A stretch of DNA of 64,000 bases from NCBI GenBank assembly GCA_045541795.1, contig JAZQJV010000018.1, forward strand, positions 118,236 through 182,235. Reading direction: 5' to 3'. The notes beneath the pieces are model-generated. The model ran no database searches, had not been told where the DNA came from, and worked only from the letters and a program-made list of their open reading frames with translations. Origin of the DNA: Patescibacteria group bacterium. GTDB lineage: Bacteria; Patescibacteriota; Microgenomatia; UBA1400; PJMF01. The translations under genes and the position numbers were made by a program. Positions 835 to 63,368 of the stretch are shown here, one piece after another (position 1 is the stretch's first letter; each line of letters starts with the position of its first letter).

Positions 835-1374
835 GTGCCAACATTATTAACTGGAGGTTATATCACTTTTGCCTGGAAATCCATATGCGACCATCATGAC
901 TATAATCGTATTGATTTGCATGCCTTTAGACTGGACAATAGCTTTACTTATACAGTTTCACTTACAGTCAATTATGACAAGGTTAATCTTTTAGAGAAAC
1001 TGCCAGTCTTACCAAAGTTCGAACAATTATTTATAACTTTCAATCAACCACAAATGCTACTGACCGATACTTTATTGTGGCACGCTGATCGTTGTTACCA
1101 ATTTCAGGGACAAACATTCAATTATGTCCTCATCAGAGCACTGGTAAAAGCCAATGGAGAAATTCCCTGGAACGATCAGCTGCTGCTGATGTATGATCCT
1201 GGTCCTCTTCATCTAAGTAGCTCGAAAATAGATGATAGAAGTACTTTAATTTGTCGTGCTATAGATGACCTTAACTTGGAGCTCAAACAAAAACTTAAAA
1301 TGAATTTTACACCGATACACAGACGTAAAAATAAATTTATTAAATTTGATAAACAAATTATACTATCGACATAG
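835..1374 (+). CDS. hypothetical protein (possible OmpR/CadC-like winged-helix at the C-terminus)
   Basis: 179-aa ORF with a GTG start in the AT-rich region. The stretch ..RSTLICRAIDDLNLELKQKL...FIKF weakly resembles a Trans_reg_C recognition helix and wing. Confidence 0.4.
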   Translation: MPTLLTGGYITFAWKSICDHHDYNRIDLHAFRLDNSFTYTVSLTVNYDKVNLLEKLPVLPKFEQLFITFNQPQMLLTDTLLWHADRCYQFQGQTFNYVLIRALVKANGEIPWNDQLLLMYDPGPLHLSSSKIDDRSTLICRAIDDLNLELKQKLKMNFTPIHRRKNKFIKFDKQIILST

Positions 1375-1735: not shown

Positions 1736-2824
1736 ATGACAAACACAAAAAAGATCCAGACAGTTACTAGTAACGATATGTCGATGTCTAATGATCAAGA
1801 GTATCGGGAATGGTTAGTCGACTTAAAAACAAGATATCAACATAGTCGCATTAAAGCATCTATAAAAATTAATTATGAGGTCATTTTTTATTACTGGTCT
1901 GTTGGTCGTGACATTGTGATTAAAAAAGCCGAATCAAAATGGGGTAGTGGTTTTTATGATAATTTGAGTCGCGATCTACGACGAGAATTACCTGGTATAC
2001 AGGGATTATCAAAAACAAATCTCAAATACATGAAGTACTTTTATGATCTTTTTCCAGATGTGTTTACTGATAAGTCAATTCGTCCACAAGTTGTGGACGA
2101 ATTGGAGCAAATACCTTGGGGACATATCCGATATATTATAGATAAGTGTCGCGGTGATCAACAAAAGGTGATATTTTTCATCAATAAGACCGTGGAAAAC
2201 AACTGGTCGAGAGCAATGCTGCTAAATTTCCTGGATACAGATCTTTACGAGAGGCAAGGGAAGGCGATTACGAATTTTACCAATAAGTTAGCTTCGCCTC
2301 AAGGAGAATTAGCTCAACAGCTTACCAAAGATCCTTACAGTTTTGACTTTCTTACTATGAGAGAAAACTATCAAGAAAAAGAGCTTAAGGATGCCCTGAT
2401 TGCTAATATTGAAAGATTTCTGCTGGAACTTGGCAAAGGTTTTGCTTATATGGGACGGGAATACCGCTTACAAATCGGTGAAACTGAAAAATTTATAGAT
2501 ATGCTCTTTTACAACACTGTCCTGCGTTGTTACGTGGTAGTAGAAGTCAAAGTGGAGAAATTTGAATCCGGACATTTAGGGCAATTGGGATTGTATGTGA
2601 CCGCGGTTAATCATCAGCTCAAAAACGAAACTGACAATCCCACTATCGGTCTGTTGATTTGCAAGAGCAAAGAGAATGTGGTGGCGAAATACTCGCTAGA
2701 AAGCATGGCGGTGCCGATCGGAATATCAGAATATGAGTTGCAAAAAATCTATCCCGCTGATTTCAAGAGTAGTTTGCCAACGATAGAGGAGATAGAGAAT
2801 GAGCTGGCTGATAATAACGATTAG
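1736..2824 (+). CDS. YhcG/DUF1016 family PD-(D/E)xK nuclease (paralog a)
   Basis: KAESKWGSGFYDNLSRDL, PWGHIRYI, FAYMGREYRLQIGE..FIDMLFYN..CYVVVEVK (D..E.K core), PTIGLLIC. A TTGCAT-17-TATAAA promoter lies upstream near 1693-1721. Confidence 0.85.
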   Translation: MTNTKKIQTVTSNDMSMSNDQEYREWLVDLKTRYQHSRIKASIKINYEVIFYYWSVGRDIVIKKAESKWGSGFYDNLSRDLRRELPGIQGLSKTNLKYMKYFYDLFPDVFTDKSIRPQVVDELEQIPWGHIRYIIDKCRGDQQKVIFFINKTVENNWSRAMLLNFLDTDLYERQGKAITNFTNKLASPQGELAQQLTKDPYSFDFLTMRENYQEKELKDALIANIERFLLELGKGFAYMGREYRLQIGETEKFIDMLFYNTVLRCYVVVEVKVEKFESGHLGQLGLYVTAVNHQLKNETDNPTIGLLICKSKENVVAKYSLESMAVPIGISEYELQKIYPADFKSSLPTIEEIENELADNND

Positions 2825-2845: not shown

Positions 2846-4273
2846 ATGTTCACACCTTTTGGCAAGAATCTCGACAATCTAAGTTTTGAAGACATTCAAA
2901 AATTTTGCGATAAAGGTGTTGCTGAAAATATTTATATTGATTACAAGAAAGAAATTAATCAGAAGAATGATCATCTTGCCAAAACTATTGCGTCCTTTGC
3001 TAATACACATGGCGGCTGGATAATAATTGGAGTAGAAGATAAGAATGATCGTCCAAACTCTCCATTTAACGGGATTGACTATACAGATGGAATAGAGTCT
3101 AGTATAACTACTATAATTGTTGACAATATTTATCCATATGTCGAAGTTACATCAAAGGTTATTGTCAACCATGATAATAAAAGAGCTTTTGTTGTAGTGT
3201 ATGTCCCAGAAAGTCATAAAACACCACATTGGATTAACAGCAGAAGGGATCTTTATATTAGAGCTAATACTAGAACAAAAACTGGCAGAGATGATATTAA
3301 GAATAAAAACGAAGACTTGGATATTTACGCCACTTCTGAAAATTGGGAATTCTTAAGAAATAAAAGGGAAAGGTCTCAACAACTGGCAATAGAATTGGAA
3401 ACAGCTTTAAATCGTTTGTTTCTATCATATAAAGATAAAGAAGAACGTTTGTGGTATCAAAATAACGAAAAAGTTAAAAATAATCCGTCGCTGCAAAGTA
3501 TAATATCTGAAGATATGGATACACTCGACTGTGCAGATCCAAGTATCACAACAATTAAAAATAGGCGAGAGTTCAGAAGCGAATGTTATCATGATAACAT
3601 TAGTATTATTGTCCAGCCAGTTTTCCCATCATACGCTATTTCTTCACCGCGTGATTTGAGAGAACACTATTCGTCTAACAGCGGTGCAAACCTCACTAAC
3701 GTTGGTTCACTTGACGAAAACTACAAACTTGATTATTTTCAAAACGGGATAGTAACTTTTTTTACTCCCGACAATAAGACAGGCAACCATTGCGCATTTT
3801 TTGCTCAAGACATCTTTGGTTCGTGCATGGTAAAACACAAGATAGTTCAACACAATCGAAAGAAGATTGATAACTACCAGGGTTATGAAGTGCCGCCAAA
3901 TAGTAACATTATTGACTTTGAATACTTGATAGTTTATATTGAACAATTTTTAAAATATGCATCAGTTTTTTATAAACAAATTGGTTATTTAGGCGAACTT
4001 AGACTTAAGGTGGTCATGAATGTGCCAGAATGGTCATATATGATAATTCATGATTCAACCAAGAATTTTCCGCTTGCATATAGTAATTCTGATAAATATT
4101 TTCTTTGGGAGAAAGTTTTTATTAATGCTGATTTTGTTAACGATCAAGAACGAAATAAAATACTAAATACTATGTATGAAAGTATTGGATTCTTTTTTAA
4201 TTGTGACGAAATTCCTAAACAAATAATTAATAATCTGAGAAAGAATCCAAATAATGCTAATGAGCAACTTTAA
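2846..4273 (+). CDS. AlbA_2 (Schlafen-like, putative DNA-binding) domain protein with an uncharacterised ~330-aa C-terminal region
   Basis: The N-terminus reads ENIYIDYKKEIN...LAKTIASFANTHGGWIIIGVED...FVVVYVPES...YIRANTRT, which fits the AlbA_2 pattern. It starts 21 nt after the DUF1016a stop. Confidence 0.75.
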   Translation: MFTPFGKNLDNLSFEDIQKFCDKGVAENIYIDYKKEINQKNDHLAKTIASFANTHGGWIIIGVEDKNDRPNSPFNGIDYTDGIESSITTIIVDNIYPYVEVTSKVIVNHDNKRAFVVVYVPESHKTPHWINSRRDLYIRANTRTKTGRDDIKNKNEDLDIYATSENWEFLRNKRERSQQLAIELETALNRLFLSYKDKEERLWYQNNEKVKNNPSLQSIISEDMDTLDCADPSITTIKNRREFRSECYHDNISIIVQPVFPSYAISSPRDLREHYSSNSGANLTNVGSLDENYKLDYFQNGIVTFFTPDNKTGNHCAFFAQDIFGSCMVKHKIVQHNRKKIDNYQGYEVPPNSNIIDFEYLIVYIEQFLKYASVFYKQIGYLGELRLKVVMNVPEWSYMIIHDSTKNFPLAYSNSDKYFLWEKVFINADFVNDQERNKILNTMYESIGFFFNCDEIPKQIINNLRKNPNNANEQL

Positions 4274-4297
4274 CTTCCCGTCTCAAAAACTCCCCAA

Positions 4298-4364
4298 TCA
4301 TGCTATAATCAACCTCAAGTAACTGGGTTCGGATTTCCCGCCAGAAACCACCAAAAAATAGGAT
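4298..4364 (+). repeat. promoter-plus-leader repeat, copy 1 (TGcTATAAT 4301-4309; conserved 29-nt core 4324-4352)
   Basis: The core tgggtTcggatttcccgccagaaaccacc differs at one base from the copy at 6859-6887. Both cores lie 14 nt after their -10 box. No ORF follows this copy. Confidence 0.7.
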
Positions 4365-4423: not shown

Positions 4424-5590
4424 TTAATCATTATTGTTAATGTTTAAAAGTAATTGTAATCTTTTCATGATTTCATCGAATGTTATTATTATATTTCTGG
4501 AAACACTCTTTCTGAATAAGTTGAACGATCTTTCTTGTTCTTCAAGAAGTCCTGATTTGTTACCGATAATAATTATTCCTAATGGATCAAGAGCATTCAA
4601 GCGGTTATCTTCATAATCTTTTCCAATAAGAGTTGAAAAATTATCACTCGCAATTCTAATTTGATTTTCTAGTTGAACTATCGCACCACTCAATTCGTCA
4701 GACATGGAATAGCACACATTCTCTCCAACGGCATCTGAATTGCCTCTATATTGATGTCCAATAATGGCACTTTGCGGTGTTTTAATTTCAATAACTGCAA
4801 AGCTTTTATTTGAAAGATTTTGCAAAAGAAAATCAGCGGCGACTCCTCCTTGGCCGTTTCTTCCACGACTGTTCTTTCCTCCTAGATATGTTTCGCCATT
4901 CAAATAACAGACTGGACAATAAAACAAACTCTCAAAAATCCACTGATTTTCTGTGAAGAATGCTTGCCAAAAGTTTTCTTTTTGGTTATTATTCATATTT
5001 TTCGCAATTGTATTAATTGCATTCTGCAATTTGGCTAGTAATATAATATTTTCTAATACTCTGATGTTTCCTTTTCCTAAATCTCTTAACTTGGTAATAA
5101 CCATTTCCTTATTTTTAATATCGCCAATTTGCAATAAAACACTTTCTATATTTCCTTCTCCAATAGATATTGTTGTGGTTCCAAATTTAATACCGTTTTC
5201 ATTTAGAGTCTCTCTAATTAACGGTAAATGCTCAAAGAGATTTTTCATGGCTTCACCATCAAGGTTGAGATCATAAAATTCTCCTTTTCTTAACTTAGTA
5301 ACAGATAGGCCTTTATAACTTTGCCAGTTGTCATTAATTCCTTTTCTTTCCCATCTGAAACCTCCTCGCAATGGTTTGTCAGTTTGAGATGGGTCTACCC
5401 ACTTTGGGTAAAAAAGTAATCTTGTGCTTTCAGTTTCTTTTAGTATAATTGGGGAAATATCAGCGGTTTTATTGGAAGTAGATTTTATTGTTATATCTTT
5501 TGATTCTTTCTGTTTGTCTGTAAATCCCTTGCGAGGTAGCGTGAAATCTATTTCTCCTGAAATATTGCTAAAATCATATTTTGGAGTCAT
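4424..5590 (-). CDS. sduA: Shedu-like DUF4263 (SduA-type) PD-(D/E)xK nuclease
   Basis: The C-terminal half reads NFWQAFFTENQWIFESLF...GVAADFLLQN...FAVIEIKTP...SDELSGAIVQLENQI, which fits the DUF4263 pattern at ~390 aa. The track start is a TTG at 5602. The ATG at 5590 preceded by GAAAG is more likely. Confidence 0.7.
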   Translation of the reverse strand: MTPKYDFSNISGEIDFTLPRKGFTDKQKESKDITIKSTSNKTADISPIILKETESTRLLFYPKWVDPSQTDKPLRGGFRWERKGINDNWQSYKGLSVTKLRKGEFYDLNLDGEAMKNLFEHLPLIRETLNENGIKFGTTTISIGEGNIESVLLQIGDIKNKEMVITKLRDLGKGNIRVLENIILLAKLQNAINTIAKNMNNNQKENFWQAFFTENQWIFESLFYCPVCYLNGETYLGGKNSRGRNGQGGVAADFLLQNLSNKSFAVIEIKTPQSAIIGHQYRGNSDAVGENVCYSMSDELSGAIVQLENQIRIASDNFSTLIGKDYEDNRLNALDPLGIIIIGNKSGLLEEQERSFNLFRKSVSRNIIITFDEIMKRLQLLLNINNND

Positions 5591-5608
5591 GGTGGCTTTC
5601 AATCAAAA

Positions 5609-6736
5609 TTACCTATTTGCTTCTAGCAACTTTTTCTCTATCTCCTCTATCGTCGGCATCGTTCCTTCCACCTTTTGCGGATACAACTTCTCCAGTTCGT
5701 ACTCCGAAATTCCCAATGGTTGATTGCTAGATTCCAAAGCATACTGAGCGATTAAATTATCTTTTTGCTTGCAAATGAGCAAACCGATAGTCGGATTATC
5801 TCGTCCTTCTTTTTGTAAAAGGTGATTGCAAGAAACCACGTAACCGCCAAGTTGCCCCAAATCGGCAAAATCAAATTCGCCAATTTTCACTTCAACCACA
5901 ACGTAACAAGACAACTGTAAATTATAGAAAAGCAAATCAATAAATTTTTCTTTCTCGCCGATTTGCAGTCGATACTCTTTTCCCACATACGCGAAGCCCG
6001 TGCCAAGTTCTAATAAAAATTTGGTTATATTTTCTAGCAGGGCATCTTTTAATTTACGTTCATTGTATTTATCGGTAATACCAGTAAAAGCAAAATTATA
6101 TGGATCTTTTGTTAATTCCTGAGCTAAATCGCTAGTAACATTGGGTAAGGTTTTGCCAAAATTCGTCAATGCTTTTCCTCGTCGATCATAAAGATCGGTT
6201 TCAATAAAATTGAGTAGCATATCTCGGCTCCAACCATTTTCTATTGTTTGGTGAACAAAAAAGAGTGCTTTTTGTGGTTCTGTTTTGAATTTATCAATTA
6301 ACAGCTTATGATGGCCCCACGGAACAGAAAAAATGTCGCTTTCAATTTTCTCAATGACTTGCTGAGTAATTACATTACTTTCTATTTGCTCCCCAACTTG
6401 GGGAGCAATTTCGAAATATTGATGGTAAAGTATATAAAAGTTTTTCATGTACAACAAATTTGTCGGCGAAAAACACGTTGCGTCAGGATTGAGAGTTTTA
6501 AGGTCTCGGCTGAGATTTTTCATGAAACCACTGCTCCATTTACTTTCGGCTTTCATTACCACAATGTCTCTGCCCAAATCATAGTAAAAACGAAGCATTT
6601 CCCGATTAACTTTTACTGCTGCTCTAACTTGGCTCAAGCGATAACGAGAAGAAAGCTTCCCAATCCACGAGGCATAATTTTCATCTAGAATTGTTAGTGA
6701 CTGAACTTGTTTTGCAACCTGTTTTTTCTCTGTCAT
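5609..6736 (-). CDS. YhcG/DUF1016 family PD-(D/E)xK nuclease (paralog b)
   Basis: KAESKWSSGFMKNLSRDL, PWGHHKLL, FAYVGKEYRLQIGE..FIDLLFYN..CYVVVEVK, PTIGLLIC. It is colinear with 1736-2824 over its whole length. Confidence 0.85.
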   Translation of the reverse strand: MTEKKQVAKQVQSLTILDENYASWIGKLSSRYRLSQVRAAVKVNREMLRFYYDLGRDIVVMKAESKWSSGFMKNLSRDLKTLNPDATCFSPTNLLYMKNFYILYHQYFEIAPQVGEQIESNVITQQVIEKIESDIFSVPWGHHKLLIDKFKTEPQKALFFVHQTIENGWSRDMLLNFIETDLYDRRGKALTNFGKTLPNVTSDLAQELTKDPYNFAFTGITDKYNERKLKDALLENITKFLLELGTGFAYVGKEYRLQIGEKEKFIDLLFYNLQLSCYVVVEVKIGEFDFADLGQLGGYVVSCNHLLQKEGRDNPTIGLLICKQKDNLIAQYALESSNQPLGISEYELEKLYPQKVEGTMPTIEEIEKKLLEANR

Positions 6737-6815: not shown

Positions 6816-6903
6816 TTGCAAAAACAACTTCATACTGTTATAATCAGTTTCAAATAATTGGGTGCGGATTTCCCGCCAGAAACCACCCCAAAAAGATGGG
6901 ATT
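6816..6903 (+). promoter_or_regulatory. promoter-plus-leader repeat, copy 2 (TTGCAA 6816-6821, 17-nt spacer, TGtTATAAT 6836-6844; core 6859-6887)
   Basis: Consensus-like promoter followed by the conserved core tgggtGcggatttcccgccagaaaccacc. Possible helix GGGTG 6860-6864 / CACCC 6884-6888 and inner hairpin GCGG-atttc-CCGC. It precedes the zinc-ribbon/TM2 gene. Confidence 0.6.
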
Positions 6904-6922: not shown

Positions 6923-7256
6923 ATGACAGATGAAAAAACAAAATACTGTAAACATTGCGGTTCGCTTATTGATGTAGAATTGCATAATATGCCCGAAGTG
7001 TGGCAAGCAGGTCGAACAAGTAAAAGCCGAGCTTCCAAATGTAGTGATCAATAACAATAACACCAATTCGAATATAAACTATGCTGGTGCTGTGGGGAGC
7101 GGGCGGCCTATCAATAAGTGGATAGCTTTGGGTTTATGTCTTTTTCTGGGCATATTCGGTGCTCATAAGTTTTATGAAGGAAAGATTGGCATGGGAATAT
7201 TGTATTTGTTTACATTTGGTTTGTTTAGTCTTGGTTGGTTTTTAGATATTTTTTAA
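6923..7256 (+). pseudogene. zinc-ribbon + TM2 domain protein, interrupted by a +1 frameshift
   Basis: Frame A from ATG 6923 gives MTDEKTKYCKHCGSLIDVE... Frame B gives ..CIICPKCGKQVEQVKAELPNVV.. and continues into the 7044-7256 ORF with the TM2 motif (INKWIALGLCLFLGIFGAHKFYEGK). The two CxxC halves of the ribbon therefore sit in different frames, and a TAG at 6975-6977 blocks frame B upstream. Confidence 0.6.
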
Positions 7257-7355: not shown

Positions 7356-8429
7356 ATGAAAAATCATCGAAAATTCCATCCTCGCATTATTGTCAATATC
7401 ATCTGTCTTTTTTCATTGGCATTATCTCACATTATTTTTTCGCTACCGATTAAAATAATTGATACAGTTTATGCCGTCGAGCGTGAAACTGTCACTGTGA
7501 GCCGTGTGATTGATGGTGATACAATCGTTTTGAATGATGGGCGAAAGGTTAGATATATTGGAATTGATACACCAGAAACAGTTCATCCAACAAAAAATGT
7601 GCAGTGTTTTGGGAAACAAGCCAGTAACAAAAATAGAGAATTAGTCCTTGGTAAAACTGTGGAACTGGAAAAAGATATCAGTGAAACTGATCGCTATGGA
7701 CGTTTACTCAGATATGTATATTTGGATGGCGTCATGATTAATCATAAATTAGTCGCTGAAGGTTATGCCACAACCGTAACCTATCCTCCAGATGTTAAGT
7801 ATAAAGAAGAATTCTCCAAAGCTCAGGCGCAGGCAAGACAAGCAAGACTTGGGCTATGGGGTAATGAATGCAACGAAAGCAGCAGCACTCACGCATCCTC
7901 AAACAACAATGCTAGCTCAAATACAAATAAAATGGATTCGTCAAGCACATCGTCATCATCTCAAAACAACAAAACTCAAAATGACCATGAAGGCAACCAA
8001 GCTTCTACTCAACCAACTAACACTAGCGCACAAAAATGTCCATCAAATTGTAGTGAGGCCAAAAGCATGGGAATGGTTAACATTACACCGTCGCATCCAT
8101 GCTGGCAAGAAAAATTTGATGGCGATAAAGATGGCGTGGGTTGTGAAAGTGACAACCGGTCTACCAATACAAAAACAACTAACAAATCCAATAATGTCAA
8201 TAAACAGACCAGTGCTACGCCGGCACCCACGCCAGTGCCAAGTCGCGCCCCAACGCCAGAACCAACCCCACCGCCTACGTCAGTGCCAGCTCCAGCTGCG
8301 CCAACCCAATCTTGTCCAAATAACTGTACCCAAGCAAAGGCAATGGGAATGGCCAATATGACACCTTCTCATCCTTGTTGGCAATCTAAATTTGACCGAG
8401 ATAAAGACGGTATTGGTTGCGAAGACTAG
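7356..8429 (+). CDS. secreted/anchored thermonuclease (SNase family) with two C-terminal Excalibur Ca-binding domains
   Basis: VIDGDTIVL..GRKVRYIGIDTPE...RYGRLLRYVY...LGLWG, plus two copies of CP.NC..AK.MGM.N.TPSHPCWQ.KFD.DKDG.GCE separated by a PT-rich linker. It has an N-terminal hydrophobic anchor. Confidence 0.85.
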   Translation: MKNHRKFHPRIIVNIICLFSLALSHIIFSLPIKIIDTVYAVERETVTVSRVIDGDTIVLNDGRKVRYIGIDTPETVHPTKNVQCFGKQASNKNRELVLGKTVELEKDISETDRYGRLLRYVYLDGVMINHKLVAEGYATTVTYPPDVKYKEEFSKAQAQARQARLGLWGNECNESSSTHASSNNNASSNTNKMDSSSTSSSSQNNKTQNDHEGNQASTQPTNTSAQKCPSNCSEAKSMGMVNITPSHPCWQEKFDGDKDGVGCESDNRSTNTKTTNKSNNVNKQTSATPAPTPVPSRAPTPEPTPPPTSVPAPAAPTQSCPNNCTQAKAMGMANMTPSHPCWQSKFDRDKDGIGCED

Positions 8430-9502: not shown

Positions 9503-10165
9503 TCATCTTTGACGTCTCGCTCTCTCCATATACTCTCTTTGCACCCGCATAAATAATTCCTTATCTGCCAAAAGCGTCCGGATCTCATTTAAAAAACGCT
9601 CGTACTCCGGATCAGAAAAAAAGTATTTCGCATAGCCGCCCTCACCAAATTTTTCTTTCAGGTGTTGCCAACTTCTCACAAACAATTGCTCGTCACTAAA
9701 ATCCGGATGTAAATTTTTACCATACACAAAACTTCGATACAAACAATCTTCTACGCTCGTATTTCTGTCCGCCGTGGACACAATTTTCCCGTACACGCTC
9801 CGGGGCTCGTGATTGCTTGAAGCACGATGATCTTCGATTGCCTCTTTAATCAGTTTTAATTGTTTACCGCTAAAAAAATCAGGCAAATGCTTATCCTCAC
9901 TCATCATCCGCGCAGAAATAATCTCATGCTTGGCTGGATCAATGTGATGTCCCAGATCATGATAAGCAGCCACAGTGTAGACAATGTCTAAGTTAACGTC
10001 GGTCAGTTTTTGCGCCAAGTTAATACTTCTTTCAATGACATATTTAATGTGTTTTAAATTATGAGCTGGCTCATTTTGAGCGTACTGCGGGAAAACATTT
10101 TGCTGGATGTATGTTTGTAATTTTCTATTGACGGTAGGATAAAAATTATTTTCTAACATAAACAT
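9503..10165 (-). CDS. HD-domain phosphohydrolase
   Basis: AAYHDLGHHID and STADR motifs. The start is moved to the ATG at 10165, which lies 6 nt after a TATAAT box (plus-strand 10172-10177), so the gene is probably leaderless. Confidence 0.75.
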   Translation of the reverse strand: MFMLENNFYPTVNRKLQTYIQQNVFPQYAQNEPAHNLKHIKYVIERSINLAQKLTDVNLDIVYTVAAYHDLGHHIDPAKHEIISARMMSEDKHLPDFFSGKQLKLIKEAIEDHRASSNHEPRSVYGKIVSTADRNTSVEDCLYRSFVYGKNLHPDFSDEQLFVRSWQHLKEKFGEGGYAKYFFSDPEYERFLNEIRTLLADKELFMRVQREYMERARRQR

Positions 10166-15817: not shown

Positions 15818-15845
15818 TTGACAAATAGCGATTTTATGGTATAAT
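15818..15845 (+). promoter_or_regulatory. consensus promoter of infA (TTGACA, 16 nt, TGgTATAAT), leaderless geometry
   Basis: TTGACA 15818-15823 and TATAAT 15840-15845. The ATG at 15852 is only 6 nt downstream. Confidence 0.65.
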
Positions 15846-15851
15846 AAGAAT

Positions 15852-16175
15852 ATGGGTAAGGTACAAGCACATAAAAGAGCAGAAAAAGCCAAAAGACAGG
15901 TGAATTTTCAGCTGGATAAAGTCAAGAATCCAGACATGTTTGAATTTGAAGGCATTGTGGAGGACTGTCTGCCCAATACCAGTTTCCGCCTTAGCGTCAC
16001 CAGTTCCTCGCTCGAACCGCTTGTAGGTAAAAAACTGCTGGCGACACTAGCCGGCAAAATGCGCCTCTACCGCATCCGGGTGATGCCCGGTGATCAGGTC
16101 AAAGGATATGTGTCAAAATATGATCTAACTAAGGCAAAAATCACCTATAGATCCACAAAAAAGACTTCGGCGTAA
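15852..16175 (+). CDS. infA: translation initiation factor IF-1 with a ~35-aa basic N-terminal extension
   Basis: FEGIVEDCLPNTSFRLSV...GKMRLYRIRVMPGDQVKGYVSKYDLTKAKITYR matches the IF-1 S1-like core. Confidence 0.85.
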   Translation: MGKVQAHKRAEKAKRQVNFQLDKVKNPDMFEFEGIVEDCLPNTSFRLSVTSSSLEPLVGKKLLATLAGKMRLYRIRVMPGDQVKGYVSKYDLTKAKITYRSTKKTSA

Positions 16176-40029: not shown

Positions 40030-40058
40030 ATTATATCACAAAAACTGCTTCTTGTCAA
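40030..40058 (-). promoter_or_regulatory. consensus promoter of nusA-infB
   Basis: On the minus strand: TTGACA (40058-40053), 17-nt spacer, TGaTATAAT (-10 at 40035-40030). Confidence 0.6.
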
Positions 40059-40079
40059 GGGCTAATTTTGGTGTATAAT
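40052..40079 (+). promoter_or_regulatory. promoter of the pilin-like/giant-protein operon; its -35 overlaps the nusA -35 on the other strand
   Basis: TTGTCA at 40052-40057, 16-nt spacer, TATAAT at 40074-40079. Confidence 0.5.
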
Positions 40080-55734: not shown

Positions 55735-56981
55735 CAGTTAATTATATCACTTATCACTGCCTTTGTGCTGCCCGATACCGGCGAGTTTTTACTTTTCGTC
55801 ATTTGGGCCACCAAGCAGACATTCATCAATACAAGCAGTCCCTCTCCGCCTACCATTGCCCACACGCCGCCCGAGATCCCCAAGCGCGGCACTAGCAAAT
55901 AATTAAGGCACAAATTAAAAACCGTCGAGCCTAACAAAAACGGTACGTAACGGGCGACCCCGTCACTGCTTTGCAGCACGGTATTTAGTGGAGCGTTAAA
56001 AAAGAACAAAATCACCACCACGCCAAACAGCCGCAAAATCTTGGCCGCTGGAGCGTATGCCTCACCCAAAAGTCCCGTCGTCAAAAAATTGGCGCCCAGC
56101 GCCATTCCTCCCGCCACCACAAAGCCCAGCCCACACATCACTGCGACCATTTTCGCAATTTGCAGCCTAGAAAGTCCTCCTTTTTTTGCCGCCAGCGGGA
56201 AAAGATTATGGAAAAGCGCCTGCGGGAGCAAGTTAAACGCATCCAAATATCGGTACGCCGCCGAATAAATTCCCAGACTGCTACTCGCCAAAAACCGGTT
56301 GATGATCAGCTGATCCGCCCGCGAGTAAATTACGCCCAAACTGTCAATTGCCGCATACGGCCAACTAGACCACCAGTTGATCCGTCCACTCTGCTTGTAA
56401 TGCTTGAGGCTGCGCCAACAAACCGTCACGGGGAAGTACCACGGTATCATGATCAGCCACGTCAGTAAATAAGCCAGATAAAACTTCCCGCTATCATCCG
56501 GTGTGCGGATAAAAAACAAACTCCCAAAAAGCAGCACGTTGCGGACAATCAGCTTGACACCCAGCATAAAACTGCGCTCATGACTCAAGTAATAAGCATC
56601 CGCCACCGTCACCAAGGCTTCAATTGCCAGACTGCCCAAAAAAAACGGCCAGACGCCAGCTTGCAGCCAGCCAAAATGCTGCTCAGCCACCATAAAAATC
56701 ACCGCCGAGCAGACCAGCAGCAGTCCCCGCCAAGCGGTCAGCCGCCCCAATAGTCCCGGCGTTTTGGCGAGGGCTGTTTGTTTGAGGTACCAGTTTTTGA
56801 CGCCCAAGTCCCCAATCGTCGTCACCAGCTGGATGAGCGTCACAAAAAGCATGATTTGTCCAAATTTTTCCGGCAAGACTGCCCGCGCAATGATCATAAA
56901 ATACACCGCCGAAAGCAGCTTGCCGCCCACCAAAAGTCCAAAATAAATGAGTGATTTTCCCAGTAGTCGGCGCAACATCAA
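55734..56981 (-). CDS. Wzx-like oligosaccharide flippase (polysaccharide biosynthesis protein family)
   Basis: 415 aa, about 12 TM, with an N-terminal K..........GGKLLSAVYFMIIAR.L....FG pattern. Confidence 0.7.
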   Translation of the reverse strand: MMLRRLLGKSLIYFGLLVGGKLLSAVYFMIIARAVLPEKFGQIMLFVTLIQLVTTIGDLGVKNWYLKQTALAKTPGLLGRLTAWRGLLLVCSAVIFMVAEQHFGWLQAGVWPFFLGSLAIEALVTVADAYYLSHERSFMLGVKLIVRNVLLFGSLFFIRTPDDSGKFYLAYLLTWLIMIPWYFPVTVCWRSLKHYKQSGRINWWSSWPYAAIDSLGVIYSRADQLIINRFLASSSLGIYSAAYRYLDAFNLLPQALFHNLFPLAAKKGGLSRLQIAKMVAVMCGLGFVVAGGMALGANFLTTGLLGEAYAPAAKILRLFGVVVILFFFNAPLNTVLQSSDGVARYVPFLLGSTVFNLCLNYLLVPRLGISGGVWAMVGGEGLLVLMNVCLVAQMTKSKNSPVSGSTKAVISDIIN

Positions 56982-57904
56982 GCCCTCCGGTACTCAGCCC
57001 ACAAATCCTCAGGATACACGCCGTCGGCGATCAGCTGCTTGATCGCACCCACCGTAGTCTGCTTATCGGCCGCATACGTCACGCCAAACCAGCGCTCATG
57101 AGTCGGTAACATCTGCATCTGCGCGATCCCAGCCTGGATCAAATCATTGACCACATTGGGAGTAAAAAATTCTCGGCTTTCATCGTGGCCGTACTGGGTC
57201 AAAAACGCCAGCAGCCCTTCATCTAAGTAGCTAAAAATATCCGGTGTAAAAGCGAAAAGTATCATGGATACCGGCCGATCAGGCGCGATCTCATGATCGA
57301 CGCCTTGCTTGTCTCGGCTCACGATTTTCCCGTCACACCAGCCGATCTTGGTGTGCTCGTGGATAGACGTCACCAGGCCCGCCTCATTGGTTTTTAGCAA
57401 TCCGCGCGCCACCCAACCGTTGGCAGAAAGCGTCTTGCTGATCTGGTAGCCGACGACTCCATATCGCTTGCGGCTATCCGCCGGTAAGCTGTCTATCCAC
57501 TCGGCCGCTTGGAGGAAAGCCCCCCGGCCGTAAAAATCGTCAGCGCTGATCACCGCAAACGGTTCCTGGATCGTTTTTCTGGCCGTCCAGACGGCATGAC
57601 CAGTACCCCAGGGCTTAGTCCGTCCCGGCGGAGCGCTAAAGCCCTCCGGCAAATCTGTCATTTCTTGATTTAAATATATAAGTTCTGCCTGCGCCTGTGC
57701 CCCAGTAGCGGCAAAATGCGCCTGAAAATCAGCGGCAAATTCCTGGCGGATCACAAACACCACGCGCTCAAATCCCGCCTGAAGCGCATCATACACCGAA
57801 TAATCTATCAGGTACTGTCCGCCCGGCCCCACACAGTCAATTTGCTTGAGCCCGCCATAGCGCGAACCCATCCCTGCTGCCATGATCAAAAGCGTTTTGC
57901 GCAT
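56978..57904 (-). CDS. sugar-phosphate nucleotidyltransferase
   Basis: LLIMAAGMGSRYGGLKQ (G-x-G-t-R-l signature variant). The start is moved to the ATG at 57904, 7 nt after TGgTATAAT on the minus strand. Confidence 0.7.
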   Translation of the reverse strand: MRKTLLIMAAGMGSRYGGLKQIDCVGPGGQYLIDYSVYDALQAGFERVVFVIRQEFAADFQAHFAATGAQAQAELIYLNQEMTDLPEGFSAPPGRTKPWGTGHAVWTARKTIQEPFAVISADDFYGRGAFLQAAEWIDSLPADSRKRYGVVGYQISKTLSANGWVARGLLKTNEAGLVTSIHEHTKIGWCDGKIVSRDKQGVDHEIAPDRPVSMILFAFTPDIFSYLDEGLLAFLTQYGHDESREFFTPNVVNDLIQAGIAQMQMLPTHERWFGVTYAADKQTTVGAIKQLIADGVYPEDLWAEYRRA

Positions 57905-57959
57905 ATGCGTTATTATACCATACAAAAAGCTGTCTGCATCGGTAAAATTCACCCAGGCA

Positions 57960-58000
57960 AAAATTGCCTCTTGACAAATGACCCATAATGTGATATAATA
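57960..58000 (+). repeat. duplicated consensus promoter, copy A (TTGACA 57971-57976, 17 nt, TATAAT 57994-57999)
   Basis: 41 nt match 61687-61727 with 2 mismatches. It points into the 3' end of the minus-strand glycogen operon. Confidence 0.7.
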
Positions 58001-58049
58001 TAAGATATTATGATAGAAAAAAGAATAAAGAAAAATAATTATTATAGGT

Positions 58050-59090
58050 TTAGACAAAAACTGCCCACTGCTTGGGGTTTTGCCCGGCCACAATCTGACA
58101 GCTAATTTCCAGCGCTCCGTAAACTGGGGATTTTTCCGGGATGATGAGCACGGCTGGCAGTCCTGAGTCTGCTATCATTTTGGCAAATTCCTCCCGCCAG
58201 CAAAGCAAGAAACTCCCGCCCGCCACCAAGTCAAATTGCGTCTCCGCCAGCCCCAATTTGTAAGCCAACGCCTGCACATGAGTGAACAATTGCCCCAGAC
58301 AATAATTGACGATGTGGATGGCTACCTGGTCACCAGCTAGGGCCTGCGTACTGCATACCTTAGCCAAAGCCGCGATCTCATCTTTGCCCGGGACACGGCT
58401 ATATATGACGTCTTTAAGCTCTGCCAAATTGTCCACTTCAAAATGCCGTAAAACTGGTTTTGTCAGCGTTGTCTCCATGCCGCGCCCATCGAGTGCTCGT
58501 GCCACCGCGCGCAAAGTCAGTCTACCGGCGTCAAAGCCGCTGCCTTCGTCACTCAAAAGGTAATCCAGTCCGCCCATGCGCGACCATTGACCCTCACTGC
58601 TCACGCCGATACAATTACTGCCCGTCCCGCCGATAATTACCATTGCTGGCCGCTTGCTGGTCCCGGCTGTCAGCGCCGCCACCGCGTCATTAATGATCAC
58701 GATTTTTTTAATTGGCCACTCACGCAAGGTCTCGCCCAAAACTTGCTCTGCTCGCCGCAGATCCTGCTTGGTATCCAGCCCCGCAGTCGCGATCACCGCT
58801 AATTCTATTTCTTCATCCAGTGTCTGCTGGACAAACAACGCTGGTGGCACTTGATCGCTGTCGGTGTTTGTCGCTTCTTTTTGTAAAAGTTGACGCACGC
58901 CTTCGCGCGCATTATAGCCGGCCACGCCTACGCTTACCGCTGATACATTGACACTACCACCACTGACAATTTTTTCTATCCTGCCGCTGGCGTCTGCGAG
59001 TAAGTATTCCGATCGGCTCGCGCCGCCATCTATAGCAATGATCTTGCCGCTCACGCGCACCTTTCTTGCAGATCTGCCAGTACGATACAA
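58050..59090 (-). CDS. BadF/BadG/BcrA/BcrD-type ATPase (N-acetylglucosamine/hexose kinase-like)
   Basis: IIAIDGGASRSEYLL and VIIGGTGSNC. The true start may be the GTG at 59054, which forms a GTGA overlap with the upstream stop. Confidence 0.75.
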   Translation of the reverse strand: MYRTGRSARKVRVSGKIIAIDGGASRSEYLLADASGRIEKIVSGGSVNVSAVSVGVAGYNAREGVRQLLQKEATNTDSDQVPPALFVQQTLDEEIELAVIATAGLDTKQDLRRAEQVLGETLREWPIKKIVIINDAVAALTAGTSKRPAMVIIGGTGSNCIGVSSEGQWSRMGGLDYLLSDEGSGFDAGRLTLRAVARALDGRGMETTLTKPVLRHFEVDNLAELKDVIYSRVPGKDEIAALAKVCSTQALAGDQVAIHIVNYCLGQLFTHVQALAYKLGLAETQFDLVAGGSFLLCWREEFAKMIADSGLPAVLIIPEKSPVYGALEISCQIVAGQNPKQWAVFV

Positions 59091-60274
59091 TAGCGCCGGT
59101 AAGCCTCATACGGCGAATCATAAGCACTAAAGTAAGCGTGCACATCACCGTCAGCAAAGTATTTGGTGCACATATAATAAAAATGATCACTCGTCTGCAA
59201 ACGACGCCAGTCAGTCAGCAAACGCTCATCTTTTTTGCGCCACACCGCTTTTTCTAAGTCATAAATTTTCCGGAGGGTGTCCCATTGCAAATCATTTGAC
59301 CGCCACGCGGATAAGTCGCGGTCTTCATCTGCCCACGAGATCGGCTCATCCACATTATAAACTGGTAAAGTTTTCACCCACGCTGCCCAGTCTTTTTTGG
59401 TCCGGTATTTTTTGGGCGTCAGTTCATCGCGCGGATTGACGAAATTAATGTGCTCATCATTGCAGCCCAGCTCTACAAACTTTTCAAAAAAAGGAAAGAT
59501 ACCCGTGCTCGCCCACTGATGTTCGCCAAAAGTTTCAAAGTCCATGAAAAGATTAATAATTTCTTCATCGCGGTAGTCATGTAGCCAACGGCAATATTTG
59601 TCTGCGGTCAATGGCCACTCACTCCAGCTTTTTTGCGAAAAACGGAAAGCAATATCATCACTTAAAGGAGCATGCTTGAGCAACATCGGCAGTGCTGGGT
59701 CGCAATTTGCCCGGTAAACCTGTGTTTTTGGCCGGCCGGCCATTAGCCTGTCCACTCCTTCCACCAAAATCCCGCGGAAACCCAAATTAGCCACCTGCCA
59801 GCCGATATAATTACTGTAAATCATTTCGGTATTGCGGAAAACCACCGGTTTGACGTCAAAGAGTTCCCGCAGTAAATCCTTGTGCATTTTTACCTGACGT
59901 TTAAATTCCGTCTCTGAGTAAAGCGCTGACAAAGAGTGATAATAGTTTTCGCCCACAATTTCTACTTGACCGCGATGCTGGCTCAAGCGATAAAGCAAAT
60001 CCAAAACGTCCTGACCCCAAGCTTGACATTGCTCCAAAAATACTCCCGAGCACGAAAACGCAAATTTAAAATCCGGATATTTTTCCACTAGTTTTAAAAG
60101 TAAGCCCAGCATCGGCCGGTAGCTTTTTTCGGCCACCTTCAAAAAGACCTCATGATTTTGGTCGCGGCAATCATCACAAAAATAACGATGCCGCTCATCC
60201 CCGAGATCCGTCACCGCAAAATTTGTCAACCGGTAAGGCTGATGGAGCAAAAAATAAAAACAAACTTTCGGCAT
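59051..60274 (-). CDS. glycoside hydrolase family 57 protein
   Basis: N-terminal FYFLLHQPYR, with size and Trp-rich pattern typical of GH57 amylase/branching enzymes. Confidence 0.75.
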   Translation of the reverse strand: MPKVCFYFLLHQPYRLTNFAVTDLGDERHRYFCDDCRDQNHEVFLKVAEKSYRPMLGLLLKLVEKYPDFKFAFSCSGVFLEQCQAWGQDVLDLLYRLSQHRGQVEIVGENYYHSLSALYSETEFKRQVKMHKDLLRELFDVKPVVFRNTEMIYSNYIGWQVANLGFRGILVEGVDRLMAGRPKTQVYRANCDPALPMLLKHAPLSDDIAFRFSQKSWSEWPLTADKYCRWLHDYRDEEIINLFMDFETFGEHQWASTGIFPFFEKFVELGCNDEHINFVNPRDELTPKKYRTKKDWAAWVKTLPVYNVDEPISWADEDRDLSAWRSNDLQWDTLRKIYDLEKAVWRKKDERLLTDWRRLQTSDHFYYMCTKYFADGDVHAYFSAYDSPYEAYRRYCIVLADLQERCA

Positions 60275-61557
60275 TAACTCGTTTTCCTTTTTTTGGTCGT
60301 CACCTTACGTTTACGGGATGTTTTTTTCTTAGCGTCACTGGCCACTTTTTGATATACTTTTTCAATTTTGGCCGCCGACTTTTTCCAGGTGTTTTGGTCT
60401 AGGTGCGCCAACTGATCGCTCACTACTTGTTCGCGGTAAGCGTGATCATTGATCAAATGTAACACTTCCGCCGCCATCGCGTCTACGTCCCAAAAATCAA
60501 ATTTCGGGCTGCCGGTCATCACTTCTACCACTCCAGAATTTTTGGAAGCAATCACCGGCGTGTGTGCCATGGCCGCCTCCGCCGCCGACAGCCCAAAAGG
60601 CTCACTTACACTCGGCATCACAAACACATCCGCTCGCCGCAAAATTGCTTGCTGCGCTCCGCCGCGCACAAATCCCGAAAACAGCAAATTGGCAGACAAA
60701 GATTTACTGGCGGTGCTCAAAAGTAAATGCTGGTACATGTCGCCCATGCCCGAAACAATAAACAAGATGTCTGGCCGCACCGTCATCAGTTTTTCGGCCA
60801 ACTGTACGAAGTAATCCGGGCCTTTTTGCATCGTCAGCCGCCCCATGAACACCACTACCGGCCGGCCGGTGGCAAATACTTTCTCGCCGCCGCTCATTTT
60901 TTGTAAGAAACGCACCACGCCGTTGTGCACTACGTCGATTTTGCAAGGATCAATCCCGTACTGCTCTACCAACACCCGTTTGGTGTAATAGCTCACGGCT
61001 AACACTCTGTCGGCCAGCCGCATTCCGGTCACCTCACACTGTCCGATATAAGTAGCTAAGTCTGCTCCACCACTGCGGTCATATTCGGTAGAATGGATAT
61101 GAGCAATGAAAGGCTTGCCGAGTTTTTGTTTGATCCGGATCGCCGCTGGCATACTCATCCAGTCGTGGGCATGCACCACATCAAACTCATCAATGTGGGC
61201 CAGGGCATAATCAAAAACTTTGGCCGCGTATTCTTCTACTCGGTCTTCCATCCATGATCCCGGGCGCGGGCAAAATTCAGTCTCAGCACTATCGGTATTT
61301 TTGCTATTGGCGTAAGCATTAAAAGGCGGGCGAGAATTTGAGTCTTCCGGCAAGAAATCAGCCCAACTACTATTATAACAGTCCACCACATCGATGTTTT
61401 CCGGCACATCCTGGGCGATGTAGGGCAGAGTAAACTTTACGCTCACACCATCAGCATGCAGCGCTTGTGCCATCTGCGCACAGGCAGTGCCCAAACCGCC
61501 ACTATTGTGTGGTGGTAACTCCCAGCCGATCATTAATACTCTTGGTTTTTCTTGCAC
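60274..61557 (-). CDS. glycogen/starch synthase-like GT-B glycosyltransferase
   Basis: VLMIGWELPPHNSGGLGTA...HAHDW...; C-terminal SEPFGLSAAEAAMAHTPVIAS. Confidence 0.75.
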   Translation of the reverse strand: MQEKPRVLMIGWELPPHNSGGLGTACAQMAQALHADGVSVKFTLPYIAQDVPENIDVVDCYNSSWADFLPEDSNSRPPFNAYANSKNTDSAETEFCPRPGSWMEDRVEEYAAKVFDYALAHIDEFDVVHAHDWMSMPAAIRIKQKLGKPFIAHIHSTEYDRSGGADLATYIGQCEVTGMRLADRVLAVSYYTKRVLVEQYGIDPCKIDVVHNGVVRFLQKMSGGEKVFATGRPVVVFMGRLTMQKGPDYFVQLAEKLMTVRPDILFIVSGMGDMYQHLLLSTASKSLSANLLFSGFVRGGAQQAILRRADVFVMPSVSEPFGLSAAEAAMAHTPVIASKNSGVVEVMTGSPKFDFWDVDAMAAEVLHLINDHAYREQVVSDQLAHLDQNTWKKSAAKIEKVYQKVASDAKKKTSRKRKVTTKKRKTS

Positions 61558-61686
61558 GGACTTATGTTATCACGAATTGGGATGTCCTGCAAGTAGATAT
61601 TTTATACTCATAAGGGGTCAGATTTTTATAGGTCCTAAACTTAAAATATTATAGGGTATGCAAATTTAGGCCTATAATATTAAATC

Positions 61687-61727
61687 AAAATTGACTCTTG
61701 ACAAATGACCCATAATGTGGTATAATA
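61687..61727 (+). repeat. duplicated consensus promoter, copy B (TTGACA 61698-61703, 17 nt, TATAAT 61721-61726)
   Basis: See copy A. It is followed by a 27-codon sORF (61735-61818) and by a second promoter (TTGACA 61805-61810, TGgTAAAAT 61824-61832). Confidence 0.7.
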
Positions 61728-61839
61728 GGTAATTATGAAAGGTAAACAGGTGATAAAAAACAGTCAAAAATACTCGCGAATGTGGTCGGCGTGGATTTTG
61801 GGGGTTGACAATATGTGAATTGATGGTAAAATGCACACC

Positions 61840-62334
61840 ATGGAAGAAAGATATACACCCATCATTACAATTAGCGTCGTGATTGCAGCTTTGTTTGCGA
61901 CTTTGGTCTTTGTCCGGCTACATCGTACCCCGCTCGCCACCCCAGAGACATATAATGAAGTTTCACCCAGTGCTGAGCTGGCATTAGATTTTAATGCTCA
62001 CCGTCATTATATCTTTAGTCGTGACGACTGCATCCACTGTCAAAACCTAGAAAGCTACCTTGATAGTCATGAAGGCAGCCGTTCTCGTCTCGACATCGAG
62101 ATAGCCAATCTCTCTCAAACGGCCACTGCCAACTACTTCTATAATAAAGCCGTGGAATTTAGTGAAGTTTGCGGCCAGGATTCCAGCCAGTTGGGTACAC
62201 CGTTCCTCTATATCAATGATGAGAGTGTGCCCATGAGTGAACGTTGCATCGCTGGCGATACGCCGATCATGGCTTACTTTGACGGTTTGCTCGCGCCAGA
62301 GACAGCCAGTATGCCTGCTGCCGATAATCAATGA
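61840..62334 (+). CDS. membrane-anchored thioredoxin/glutaredoxin-fold-like protein (CxxC)
   Basis: IFSRDDCIHCQNLESYL. The ATG at 61840 lies 7 nt after TAAAAT. The track start at 61831 overlaps the -10 box. Confidence 0.5.
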   Translation: MEERYTPIITISVVIAALFATLVFVRLHRTPLATPETYNEVSPSAELALDFNAHRHYIFSRDDCIHCQNLESYLDSHEGSRSRLDIEIANLSQTATANYFYNKAVEFSEVCGQDSSQLGTPFLYINDESVPMSERCIAGDTPIMAYFDGLLAPETASMPAADNQ

Positions 62335-62381: not shown

Positions 62382-63368
62382 GTGAAAAAAGTGATCTGGG
62401 CAGCATTGATTTTAGGTTTGGTCGTAGTTTTTGGCGGATTCTTTGGTCTGGTGTGGTATGTGCAAGCTCTATTTGCTCCCATCAATCCTGCCGACCAGAC
62501 AGAAATTCACTATGTGGTGGCAAAGGGTAGCTCACTGGGGGCGGTGGCCGCTGATCTGGAAGCTCAAGGCATTGTCAAGAGTGCGGAAGGCTTGCGGCTT
62601 TATGCCCGGATTTTCCATGTGGGCGATAGCGTCCAGGCTGGAGAGCATATCTTGCATCGCAGTGATGATGCCGCCGGGATTATCTCGAGCCTAGAAATGC
62701 CACCCGCTCAGGTGACGTTTACCATTTTGCCCGGGTGGCGGCGTGAAGAAATCGCTGCTTATCTGAGCACTGCTGGTTTGAGCGAATTTGATGACAAGCA
62801 GTTTTTGGCGCTCACTGCCGATCTGGAAGGTCAGCTCATGCCCGAAACCTACAAAATTGCTCCCTTGAGTGATACAGCGACCATCGTGGATGTGCTCCAT
62901 GGACAATTTGTACACGACATCCTAGAAAACCCCGAGCTGCAGCCACAGTTTGCCGCCTCCAGCTATAGTCAAAATGAAATCATTACTCTCGCCTCCTTGC
63001 TCCAGCGCGAGGGCAAATCTCTATCCGAAATGAAAATGATCGCCGGGATCTTGTATTCCCGTCTGGAAGACCATTATCCGCTTCAGCTGTGCGCTAGTGC
63101 GCAATACGCCACGGGTCAAGACAGTGAGAGTGGCAAATGGTGGGAACCGCCCACCCTGGCCGATACTCAGTTTGACTCACCATACAATACTTACGTCAAC
63201 AAGGGGCTGCCACCAGGGCCGATCAGTACTGTCAGCGTGGATGCCGTGCGCGCCGCTCTGGATCCCACGCCGAGTGACTATTATTACTATTTACATGATA
63301 GTGATGGGCAGATTCACTATGCCACCACGCTTGATGGTCACGAACGTAATAAAAGTTTATATTTATAG
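62382..63368 (+). CDS. mltG: endolytic murein transglycosylase MltG (YceG family)
   Basis: LPGWRREEIA, EGQLMPETY, LASLLQREG, YNTY...GLPPGPIS. Confidence 0.85.
   Translation: MKKVIWAALILGLVVVFGGFFGLVWYVQALFAPINPADQTEIHYVVAKGSSLGAVAADLEAQGIVKSAEGLRLYARIFHVGDSVQAGEHILHRSDDAAGIISSLEMPPAQVTFTILPGWRREEIAAYLSTAGLSEFDDKQFLALTADLEGQLMPETYKIAPLSDTATIVDVLHGQFVHDILENPELQPQFAASSYSQNEIITLASLLQREGKSLSEMKMIAGILYSRLEDHYPLQLCASAQYATGQDSESGKWWEPPTLADTQFDSPYNTYVNKGLPPGPISTVSVDAVRAALDPTPSDYYYYLHDSDGQIHYATTLDGHERNKSLYL

Follow-up and report, generated by a model that had tools for sequence, protein, structure and literature searches.

Putative mobile promoters are similar promoter-bearing stretches that are followed by unrelated downstream sequence (Matus-Garcia, Nijveen & van Passel 2012, PMC3488235; also PMC3575422). 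Most of the families are pairs, the mean identity is 92%, and identical pairs, which were read as recent events, are the most frequent; the criteria were an alignment of 50–100 nt, an identity of at least 80%, and the location of each copy upstream of coding sequences that lack homology to each other (PMC3488235). The excludon, a second related arrangement, is defined by observed long overlapping transcripts together with mutually exclusive expression (cf. PMC12288877, PMC5001618). The DNA analyzed here, a 64-kb stretch of contig JAZQJV010000018.1 from a Patescibacteria group bacterium (the window), contains two highly similar promoter copies, designated A and B, that likewise have unrelated downstream sequences. 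Their identity (95%) is above the 80% threshold of the mobile promoters but their length (41 nt) is below the 50-nt minimum, and, whereas copy B precedes the gene for a protein of 164 amino acids (aa), copy A has the 3′ end of a convergent gene in front of it and so departs from the third criterion; in addition, copy A is located at a rearrangement joint. The pair falls outside the class as PMC3488235 defines it but is the same kind of promoter reuse, and it adds one more example to a type of event already known, a fairly ordinary promoter duplication. In the reading that we favor, to which we assign a probability of roughly 0.6, copy B is a long-standing promoter (P1) that was recently copied into the rearrangement joint as copy A, where it is now a tolerated or mildly useful orphan promoter. 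The two copies are as follows.

57960..58000, plus strand: copy A, the derived copy by comparison with relatives; −35 TTGACA at 57971–57976, a 17-nt spacer ending in TG, −10 TATAAT at 57994–57999; faces the 3′ end of the BadF gene
61687..61727, plus strand: copy B (P1), the ancestral copy by the same comparison and the upstream promoter of the 164-aa/MltG operon; −35 at 61698–61703, −10 at 61721–61726

The repeat, CTCTTGACAAATGACCCATAATGTG, is present on the same strand (+) at two sites 3.7 kb apart, and the copies are identical at 39 of 41 positions (95%), with mismatches at positions 8 (C/A) and 34 (A/G). Both score 12/12 against TTGACA-17-TATAAT, have TG before the −10 hexamer (TGnTATAAT), and show the hexamers and the 17 ± 1 bp spacing of a sigma-70-type consensus promoter. 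An earlier reading of the window from its letters and open reading frames (the sequence-only reading) had described two 41-nt copies with two differences, each a textbook TTGACA-17-TATAAT promoter on the plus strand, and all points of this description hold. The copy counts reported here cover the window, the fetched loci of relatives and the collections that were scanned. A pattern representing a 32-nt core, with up to 3 mismatches allowed, matches A and B only in the window and finds no match in any of 100 shuffles. There are 4 perfect TTGACA-17-TATAAT sites in the 64 kb, as compared with 0.04 expected, and, among 12 strong promoter-like sites in the window, a common spacer is found in A and B only, the spacers of the remaining 10 being unrelated. 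No further copies of the 41-mer were found in the window, in the other fetched relative loci, in viral contigs, or in plasmids.

The similarity is confined to the 41 nt. Local alignment of the flanking sequences (110 nt on each side) gives results equivalent to shuffles (313/1000 downstream and 377/1000 upstream), and a BLAST search with the whole junction that contains copy A (57936–58049) against the fetched loci gave no significant match apart from the 41-mer. Because a recently co-duplicated flank would still be apparent and none is seen, only a promoter-sized piece was copied, and its edges match those of the P1 segment that relatives have kept. The candidate of a longer, decayed duplication was rejected, as the flank similarity is no higher than in shuffles. 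Features of a miniature inverted-repeat transposable element or insertion sequence remnant were also sought: there are no terminal inverted repeats at the repeat edges, and the bases that flank A and B differ.

Some smaller features of the promoter sequences were observed in passing. At 40030–40079 two strong divergent promoters overlap in their −35 regions, where one strand shows TTGACA and the opposite strand TTGTCA; likewise, TTGACAA, the −35 region of the 41-mer, gives TTGTCA when read on the minus strand. In both copies, the −10 box is enclosed by an inverted repeat (57984–58015 and 61709–61737) made up of CATAAT in the spacer and ATTATG, which includes the transcript's first ATG, and this is also present in the P1 orthologue of a relative (L009, 3668–3696); the spacing is 17 nt in A and 15 nt in B. 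This inverted repeat could be an operator or could reflect chance in A/T-rich sequence.

Copy B lies between a minus-strand glycogen module and the plus-strand 164-aa/MltG operon.

58050..59090, minus strand: BadF/BcrAD-type ATPase (sugar-kinase-like), last gene of the glycogen module (Pfam PF01869, E 8e-25)
59051..60274, minus strand: GH57 glycoside hydrolase (Pfam PF03065, E 3e-61)
60274..61557, minus strand: GT4/GT5 glycogen/starch-synthase-like glycosyltransferase (GT), first gene of the module (Pfam Glycos_transf_1, Glyco_transf_5)
61622..61655, no strand assigned: near-invariant block ATTTTTATAGGTCCTAAACTTAAAATATTATAGG, with 32/34 columns identical in relatives at ~70% protein identity
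61805..61832, plus strand: P2 (TTGACA-16-TAAAAT), second promoter of the 164-aa gene, located 7 nt ahead of its ATG (61840) and also kept in L009 and L010
61840..62334, plus strand: gene for the 164-aa protein, which belongs to no Pfam family; its translation shows a CxxC motif and a hydrophobic segment at the N terminus
62382..63368, plus strand: MltG/YceG (Pfam)

The gene content of a minus-strand BadF/GH57/glycogen-synthase operon, as named by the sequence-only reading, is borne out by Pfam, and the second promoter that it assigned to the 61840 gene at 61805–61832 is confirmed and is also conserved in relatives. These relatives were found by homology search with the 164-aa protein, which is 70% identical in L009 and 73% identical in L010 and L011 (L numbers designate the contigs that were compared with the window); the range for relatives with a conserved junction between the cassette and P1 is ~65–73%. 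All three contigs have the gene order of the window, namely minus-strand GT-GH57(-BadF), P1, P2, the 164-aa gene and MltG, and the synteny with L009 runs to the end of the window. The P1 orthologues occupy the same position and are identical to P1 at 34–36 of 41 positions, a difference of 5–7 positions; this conservation of place and sequence is indirect support for transcription initiating from copy B. An alignment of the intergenic regions of the window, L001, L009, and L010 contains four conserved elements: the 34-nt block at 61622–61655, P1 (from AAAAYTG to TATAATA), ATGAAA just after P1, and P2. Within the 34-nt block, AATATTATAGG pairs with CCTATAATATT (61671–61681), 15 nt away, as a perfect 11-nt inverted repeat. 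The block is probably the control region (promoter/operator, with a −10 box) of the minus-strand glycogen operon, and P1 is positioned back-to-back with it. The 164-aa gene would be served by both P1 and P2, and the transcript from P2 is probably leaderless. Because the relatives keep the same block, promoter position, P2, and 164-aa/MltG genes, the comparative data show copy B to be the ancestral one, an old promoter of the 164-aa/MltG operon that has been kept in place in tandem with P2.

Each copy is followed by a small open reading frame (ORF).

58010..58105, plus strand: small ORF A, 31 codons, after copy A; overlaps the last ~56 nt of BadF
61735..61818, plus strand: small ORF B, 27 codons, after copy B; the frame is not kept in relatives

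The sequence-only reading had pointed out these ORFs, as well as the lack of a gene co-directional with copy A, which is aimed at the 3′ end of the minus-strand operon; both points stand as described. A role of the two copies in driving leaderless small proteins, the 31-codon ORF after A and the 27-codon ORF after B, is highly improbable. The ATG follows the −10 box at a distance of 10 nt in A and 8 nt in B, a spacing found in the apparently leaderless genes of this genome, and ATTATGA is common to both copies; however, the ORF after P1, which has 27 codons in the window, shrinks to 5 codons in L009, where the same ATG is used, and to 2 codons in L010, and is therefore not a conserved gene. 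Furthermore, the DNA sequences of ORFs A and B are not significantly similar, ORF A overlaps the coding end of BadF, and its sole comparator is the variant in a strain that is 97% identical.

The surroundings of copy A differ from those of copy B in their history. On the other side of copy A is an operon that begins with a nucleotidyltransferase gene.

56978..57904, minus strand: sugar-phosphate nucleotidyltransferase of 308 aa (Pfam NTP_transferase), which heads the operon that adjoins the cassette at its 3′ end
57912..57920, minus strand: promoter of the nucleotidyltransferase operon, extended −10 TGgTATAAT, 7 nt before the ATG at 57904 (read from the sequence)
57936..58049, no strand assigned: junction that separates the BadF stop codon from the nucleotidyltransferase promoter, made up of ~24 nt of unique sequence, copy A, and 49 nt of A/T-rich unique sequence

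The nucleotidyltransferase mRNA is probably leaderless. The ~115-bp stretch that holds copy A has no counterpart in four contigs from relatives that contain the nucleotidyltransferase operon (L018, L020, L021, and L022), and in none of these four is the operon beside a BadF/glycogen module. In L018, which comes from the same sample as L009 and has a nucleotidyltransferase that is 74% identical, a 25-nt gap separates the operon from an AAA/Lon-lid gene that precedes it; in L020, L021, and L022 (57–64% identical) it is divergent from a Pro_isomerase-DUF4012-AAA group. The arrangement TGGTATAAT-7 nt-ATG of the nucleotidyltransferase promoter is conserved in L018 at 9986–10003, and the homology between the window and L018 ends just upstream of the −10 box. 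The junction at 57936–58049 is therefore lineage-specific, since the operon has different neighbors in the relatives and the homology with L018 stops at this point. L018 shares two syntenic pieces with the window that are ~27 kb apart and in a different relative orientation, and on this comparison heavy rearrangement marks these genomes as a whole. The three glycogen genes form a conserved module, which more distant relatives have in other neighborhoods: L012 (with a Fic gene), L015 (with DnaE), and L023. None of the four relative contigs that extend past BadF (L012, L015, L023, and 61 nt of L009) has an antisense promoter copy there; instead, BadF is followed by a clean hairpin terminator in L012 and by a co-directional gene in L015 and L023.

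These results bear on the proposal that the glycogen module entered as a circle or integrative element at a promoter, leaving hybrid copies like attL and attR on each side. As in an integrated element, sharp-edged direct repeats bracket a discrete three-gene module exactly, the module evidently moves over long times given its other neighborhoods in L012, L015, and L023, and a second block in the window, SduA plus YhcG, is bracketed likewise. In contrast with attL/attR systems, however, one of the two junctions is ancient although the repeat is young, there is no recombinase and no empty site, and the repeat is a promoter, not the end of a tRNA or another usual target. The right-hand junction predates the split from relatives at ~70% identity, whereas the repeat has diverged by only about 2%. 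The block encodes BadF, GH57, and GT only, with the nucleotidyltransferase and the 164-aa protein as neighbors, and no recombinase was found in it by Pfam; its GC content and composition are not shifted relative to the surroundings. Every relative with the 164-aa gene has the adjoining block (L009, L010, L011), and an arrangement of nucleotidyltransferase, P1, and 164-aa gene is absent among L018, L020, L021, and L022. To retain insertion it would be necessary to suppose that the module was lost and then reacquired at the same place, and we consider it quite unlikely. The suggestion of the sequence-only reading that a cassette inserted beside a promoter and duplicated it is thus contradicted: the junction of the cassette with copy B is old (relatives at ~65–73%), that of BadF with the nucleotidyltransferase operon is lineage-specific, and there is no recombinase.

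Both junctions are reproduced in independently assembled JGI (Joint Genome Institute) contigs of the 97%-identical strain, L019 for copy A and L001 together with L002 for copy B, and an assembly chimera formed at a repeated k-mer was rejected on these grounds. In this strain copy B has C at position 8, like copy A and the relatives, and copy A carries two changes of its own close to the left end. Because of the shared C, the identity between A and B at the time of the strain split is inferred to have been 40/41. The copying event is recent, at roughly species-level divergence, since A and B differ at 1–2 positions as compared with 5–7 between P1 orthologues. A run of 69 nt over copy A (57970–58038) is free of mismatches with L019; as a test of constraint on copy A this is not significant, because the six longest mismatch-free runs in the L019 alignment are 139–225 nt. 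No strain-level substitutions are present at 61490–61693. As a separate observation, L001 matches the window from 60922 onward only, its first 154 nt being unrelated, and L019 ends at 60869, so that the contig ends (window ~60869–60922) reflect either a strain-level mosaic or an assembly break within the glycosyltransferase gene.

The comparative data therefore show that a duplication took place, that it ran from B to A, that it is young, and that it lies at a derived junction. Under the favored reading, a rearrangement within the species lineage would have joined the nucleotidyltransferase/polysaccharide-flippase operon to the 3′ end of the glycogen module, and a 41-bp piece of P1, beginning at the A-rich upstream edge and ending one base beyond the −10 box, would have been copied into the new joint. 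Templated insertions (filler DNA) produced at rearrangement junctions by template switching are known from break repair. The junction at 57936–58049 resembles these in that a new joint, with no other homology nearby, encloses a short piece whose source is a few kb distant, but edge microhomology is not evident at copy A and one junction does not establish a mechanism. Candidates for the copying step are a templated patch during break repair and a tandem duplication that was trimmed by the same rearrangement.

The core of the promoter was also encountered outside this lineage. Scans of genome and metagenome collections found an exact 20-nt core, GACAAATGACCCATAATGTG, in six other contigs. In L003, L005, and L006 the matches are in non-promoter, chance contexts, whereas in the other three the core occurs verbatim in a promoter context: 31 nt at 1413–1443(−) in L004, ~27 nt at 262–288(−) in L007, and ~28 nt at 1317–1339(+) in L008. 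These three contigs are unrelated, and the short leader after the core, which includes a hairpin and a T run, differs from one to the next. By a rough estimate, the chance expectation for an exact match in a promoter context is well under one. Phage genomes contain near matches to the core (28/31), from which it appears that promoter convergence contributes to the core matches.

Such matches could be taken to mean that no copying occurred, A and B being independent promoters of a common variant or the products of convergence, since 20–31 nt of the core recur in a promoter context in the unrelated L004, L007, and L008 and phage genomes hold 28/31 near matches. We find this hardly credible. The identity of A and B spans an additional 11 nt upstream of the −35 box that are absent from these unrelated contigs, the ten other strong promoter-like sites of the window have unrelated spacers, and the P1 orthologues have drifted at 5–7 positions while A and B differ at 1–2.

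The 41-bp unit might instead be a portable promoter module that is copied into the joints of small, rearranged genomes, with the blocks that it brackets being excisable. This would explain both the exactly promoter-sized copy and the verbatim core in three unrelated uncultured lineages, and, if it were true, the promoter repeats around the glycogen and Shedu blocks would impose antisense control and enable excision by recombination. We regard it as very doubtful.

Several observations nevertheless weigh against the reading of copy A as a recent local copy of P1 that is merely tolerated. (i) The copied piece corresponds to an exact functional promoter unit, which hints at selection rather than an accidental scar. 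(ii) The verbatim core in three unrelated contigs is a modest excess, beyond what a purely local copy event would give. (iii) Of this genome, the copy-number count covers the 64-kb window, and more copies in the genome would favor a mobile or regulon-type element. (iv) The L009 contig ends 61 nt past BadF, so that an older element may have been present at this site. (v) The activity of copy A is predicted from its consensus.

A complete consensus promoter with an extended −10 box should be bound and fired by the housekeeping holoenzyme, and antisense firing from copy A, as predicted from its sequence, is very likely. Initiation would be at ~58006–58007, 43 nt ahead of the BadF stop codon on the opposite strand, and would yield a cis-antisense transcript and head-on interference with transcription that leaves the glycogen module toward the nucleotidyltransferase operon. 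Because there is no convincing minus-strand terminator between BadF and the nucleotidyltransferase promoter, this head-on traffic could limit read-through into the nucleotidyltransferase operon. The sole terminator-like site ahead of copy A, at 58115–58129, is weak, and the number of such sites in the region is no higher than in shuffles. The predicted RNA from copy A is, if anything, less structured than shuffles (z = +1.8), and the folds downstream of A or B are no better than those of shuffles. No Rfam families were found around A or B at gathering or permissive thresholds, and no conserved RNA or protein product of copy A is evident. As in cis-antisense and excludon systems, a strong promoter is directed against a neighboring operon, and overlap and polymerase collisions are expected; what is observed here is the promoter orientation. 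The copy A arrangement is also absent from relatives with the same module (L012, L015, L023, and 61 nt of L009), although conservation of this sort would support an excludon and is not part of its definition.

It is possible that copy A has been kept by selection for an excludon-like control, to down-regulate the glycogen module or to block read-through, in co-regulation with the 164-aa/MltG operon by way of the identical promoter. Copy A is a perfect promoter that is intact in both strains, with no change at 57970–58038; the copied piece is the conserved functional unit of P1; there is no convincing intrinsic terminator on the minus strand after BadF; and the geometry occurs twice in 64 kb. 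However, a mismatch-free run of 69 nt is unremarkable at 3% divergence, no antisense promoter is present at the 3′ end of the module in L012, L015, and L023, and the predicted transcript is unstructured (z = +1.8). Moreover, the element is so young that its persistence says little about selection, and we consider such control unlikely. A wider form of this idea, in which antisense promoters opposite whole operons are a recurring design in this genome, is weakened because the four relative contigs that continue past BadF show no such promoter copy. Most likely, copy A did not evolve as a regulator but is an orphan promoter that is tolerated or has a mild use as an insulator.

The value of the locus is that comparative data reveal which copy is ancestral and which is derived, in what direction the copying went, and approximately how old it is, and that the derived copy landed at a rearrangement joint facing an operon and not before a gene. 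If copy A is active, antisense transcription can arise in a small genome in one step, by rearrangement. The locus opens no long-standing question and contains no new kind of element. The genome around it has strong consensus promoters, and many of its genes are apparently leaderless. A −10 box 6–8 nt before the start codon, together with the absence of a Shine-Dalgarno sequence, is seen in several genes, for example at 15840–15854, 57902–57920(−), and 61827–61842, and leaderless mRNAs seem to be common in this genome.

The second case of the geometry is at the Shedu module, where the sequence-only reading had also noted a promoter copy, a minus-strand block, a second promoter copy, and a plus-strand gene; this arrangement is confirmed. 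A direct repeat of 75 nt, 79% identical between its copies at 4284–4358 and 6819–6893, brackets the minus-strand genes for SduA (4424–5602) and a YhcG/DUF1016 nuclease (5609–6736). Each copy contains TGnTATAAT followed by a 28-nt core, GGGTKCGGATTTCCCGCCAGAAACCACC, that is identical but for one base. The geometry is the same as that around the glycogen module, but by comparison of the two repeats the Shedu-flanking sequence is different from the 41-mer and older. The layout is limited in the window to these two cases, copy A and the first Shedu-flanking copy. The Shedu-flanking repeat has no Rfam family, no convincing fold, and no match in viral contigs or the fetched loci, and a look-up for a strain lacking the Shedu block found none. 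Possible identities are a leader RNA motif, a site for a protein, and the core of an old recombination event.

The gene that follows the second copy of this repeat (6923–7256) looks like one for a zinc-ribbon/TM2-domain protein that a frameshift has split into ORFs 6923–7054 and 7044–7256; the alternative frame reads NCIICPKCGKQVEQ, and the split gene is either a pseudogene or the result of a sequencing error. The YhcG/DUF1016 nuclease, of the PDDEXK type, has a paralogue in the same region, the two genes (1736–2824(+) and 5609–6736(−)) being 53% identical and in opposite orientations. The cluster of defense genes to which they belong also holds a Schlafen/AlbA_2 gene (2846–4273), Shedu SduA, and a secreted SNase/Excalibur nuclease (7356–8429).

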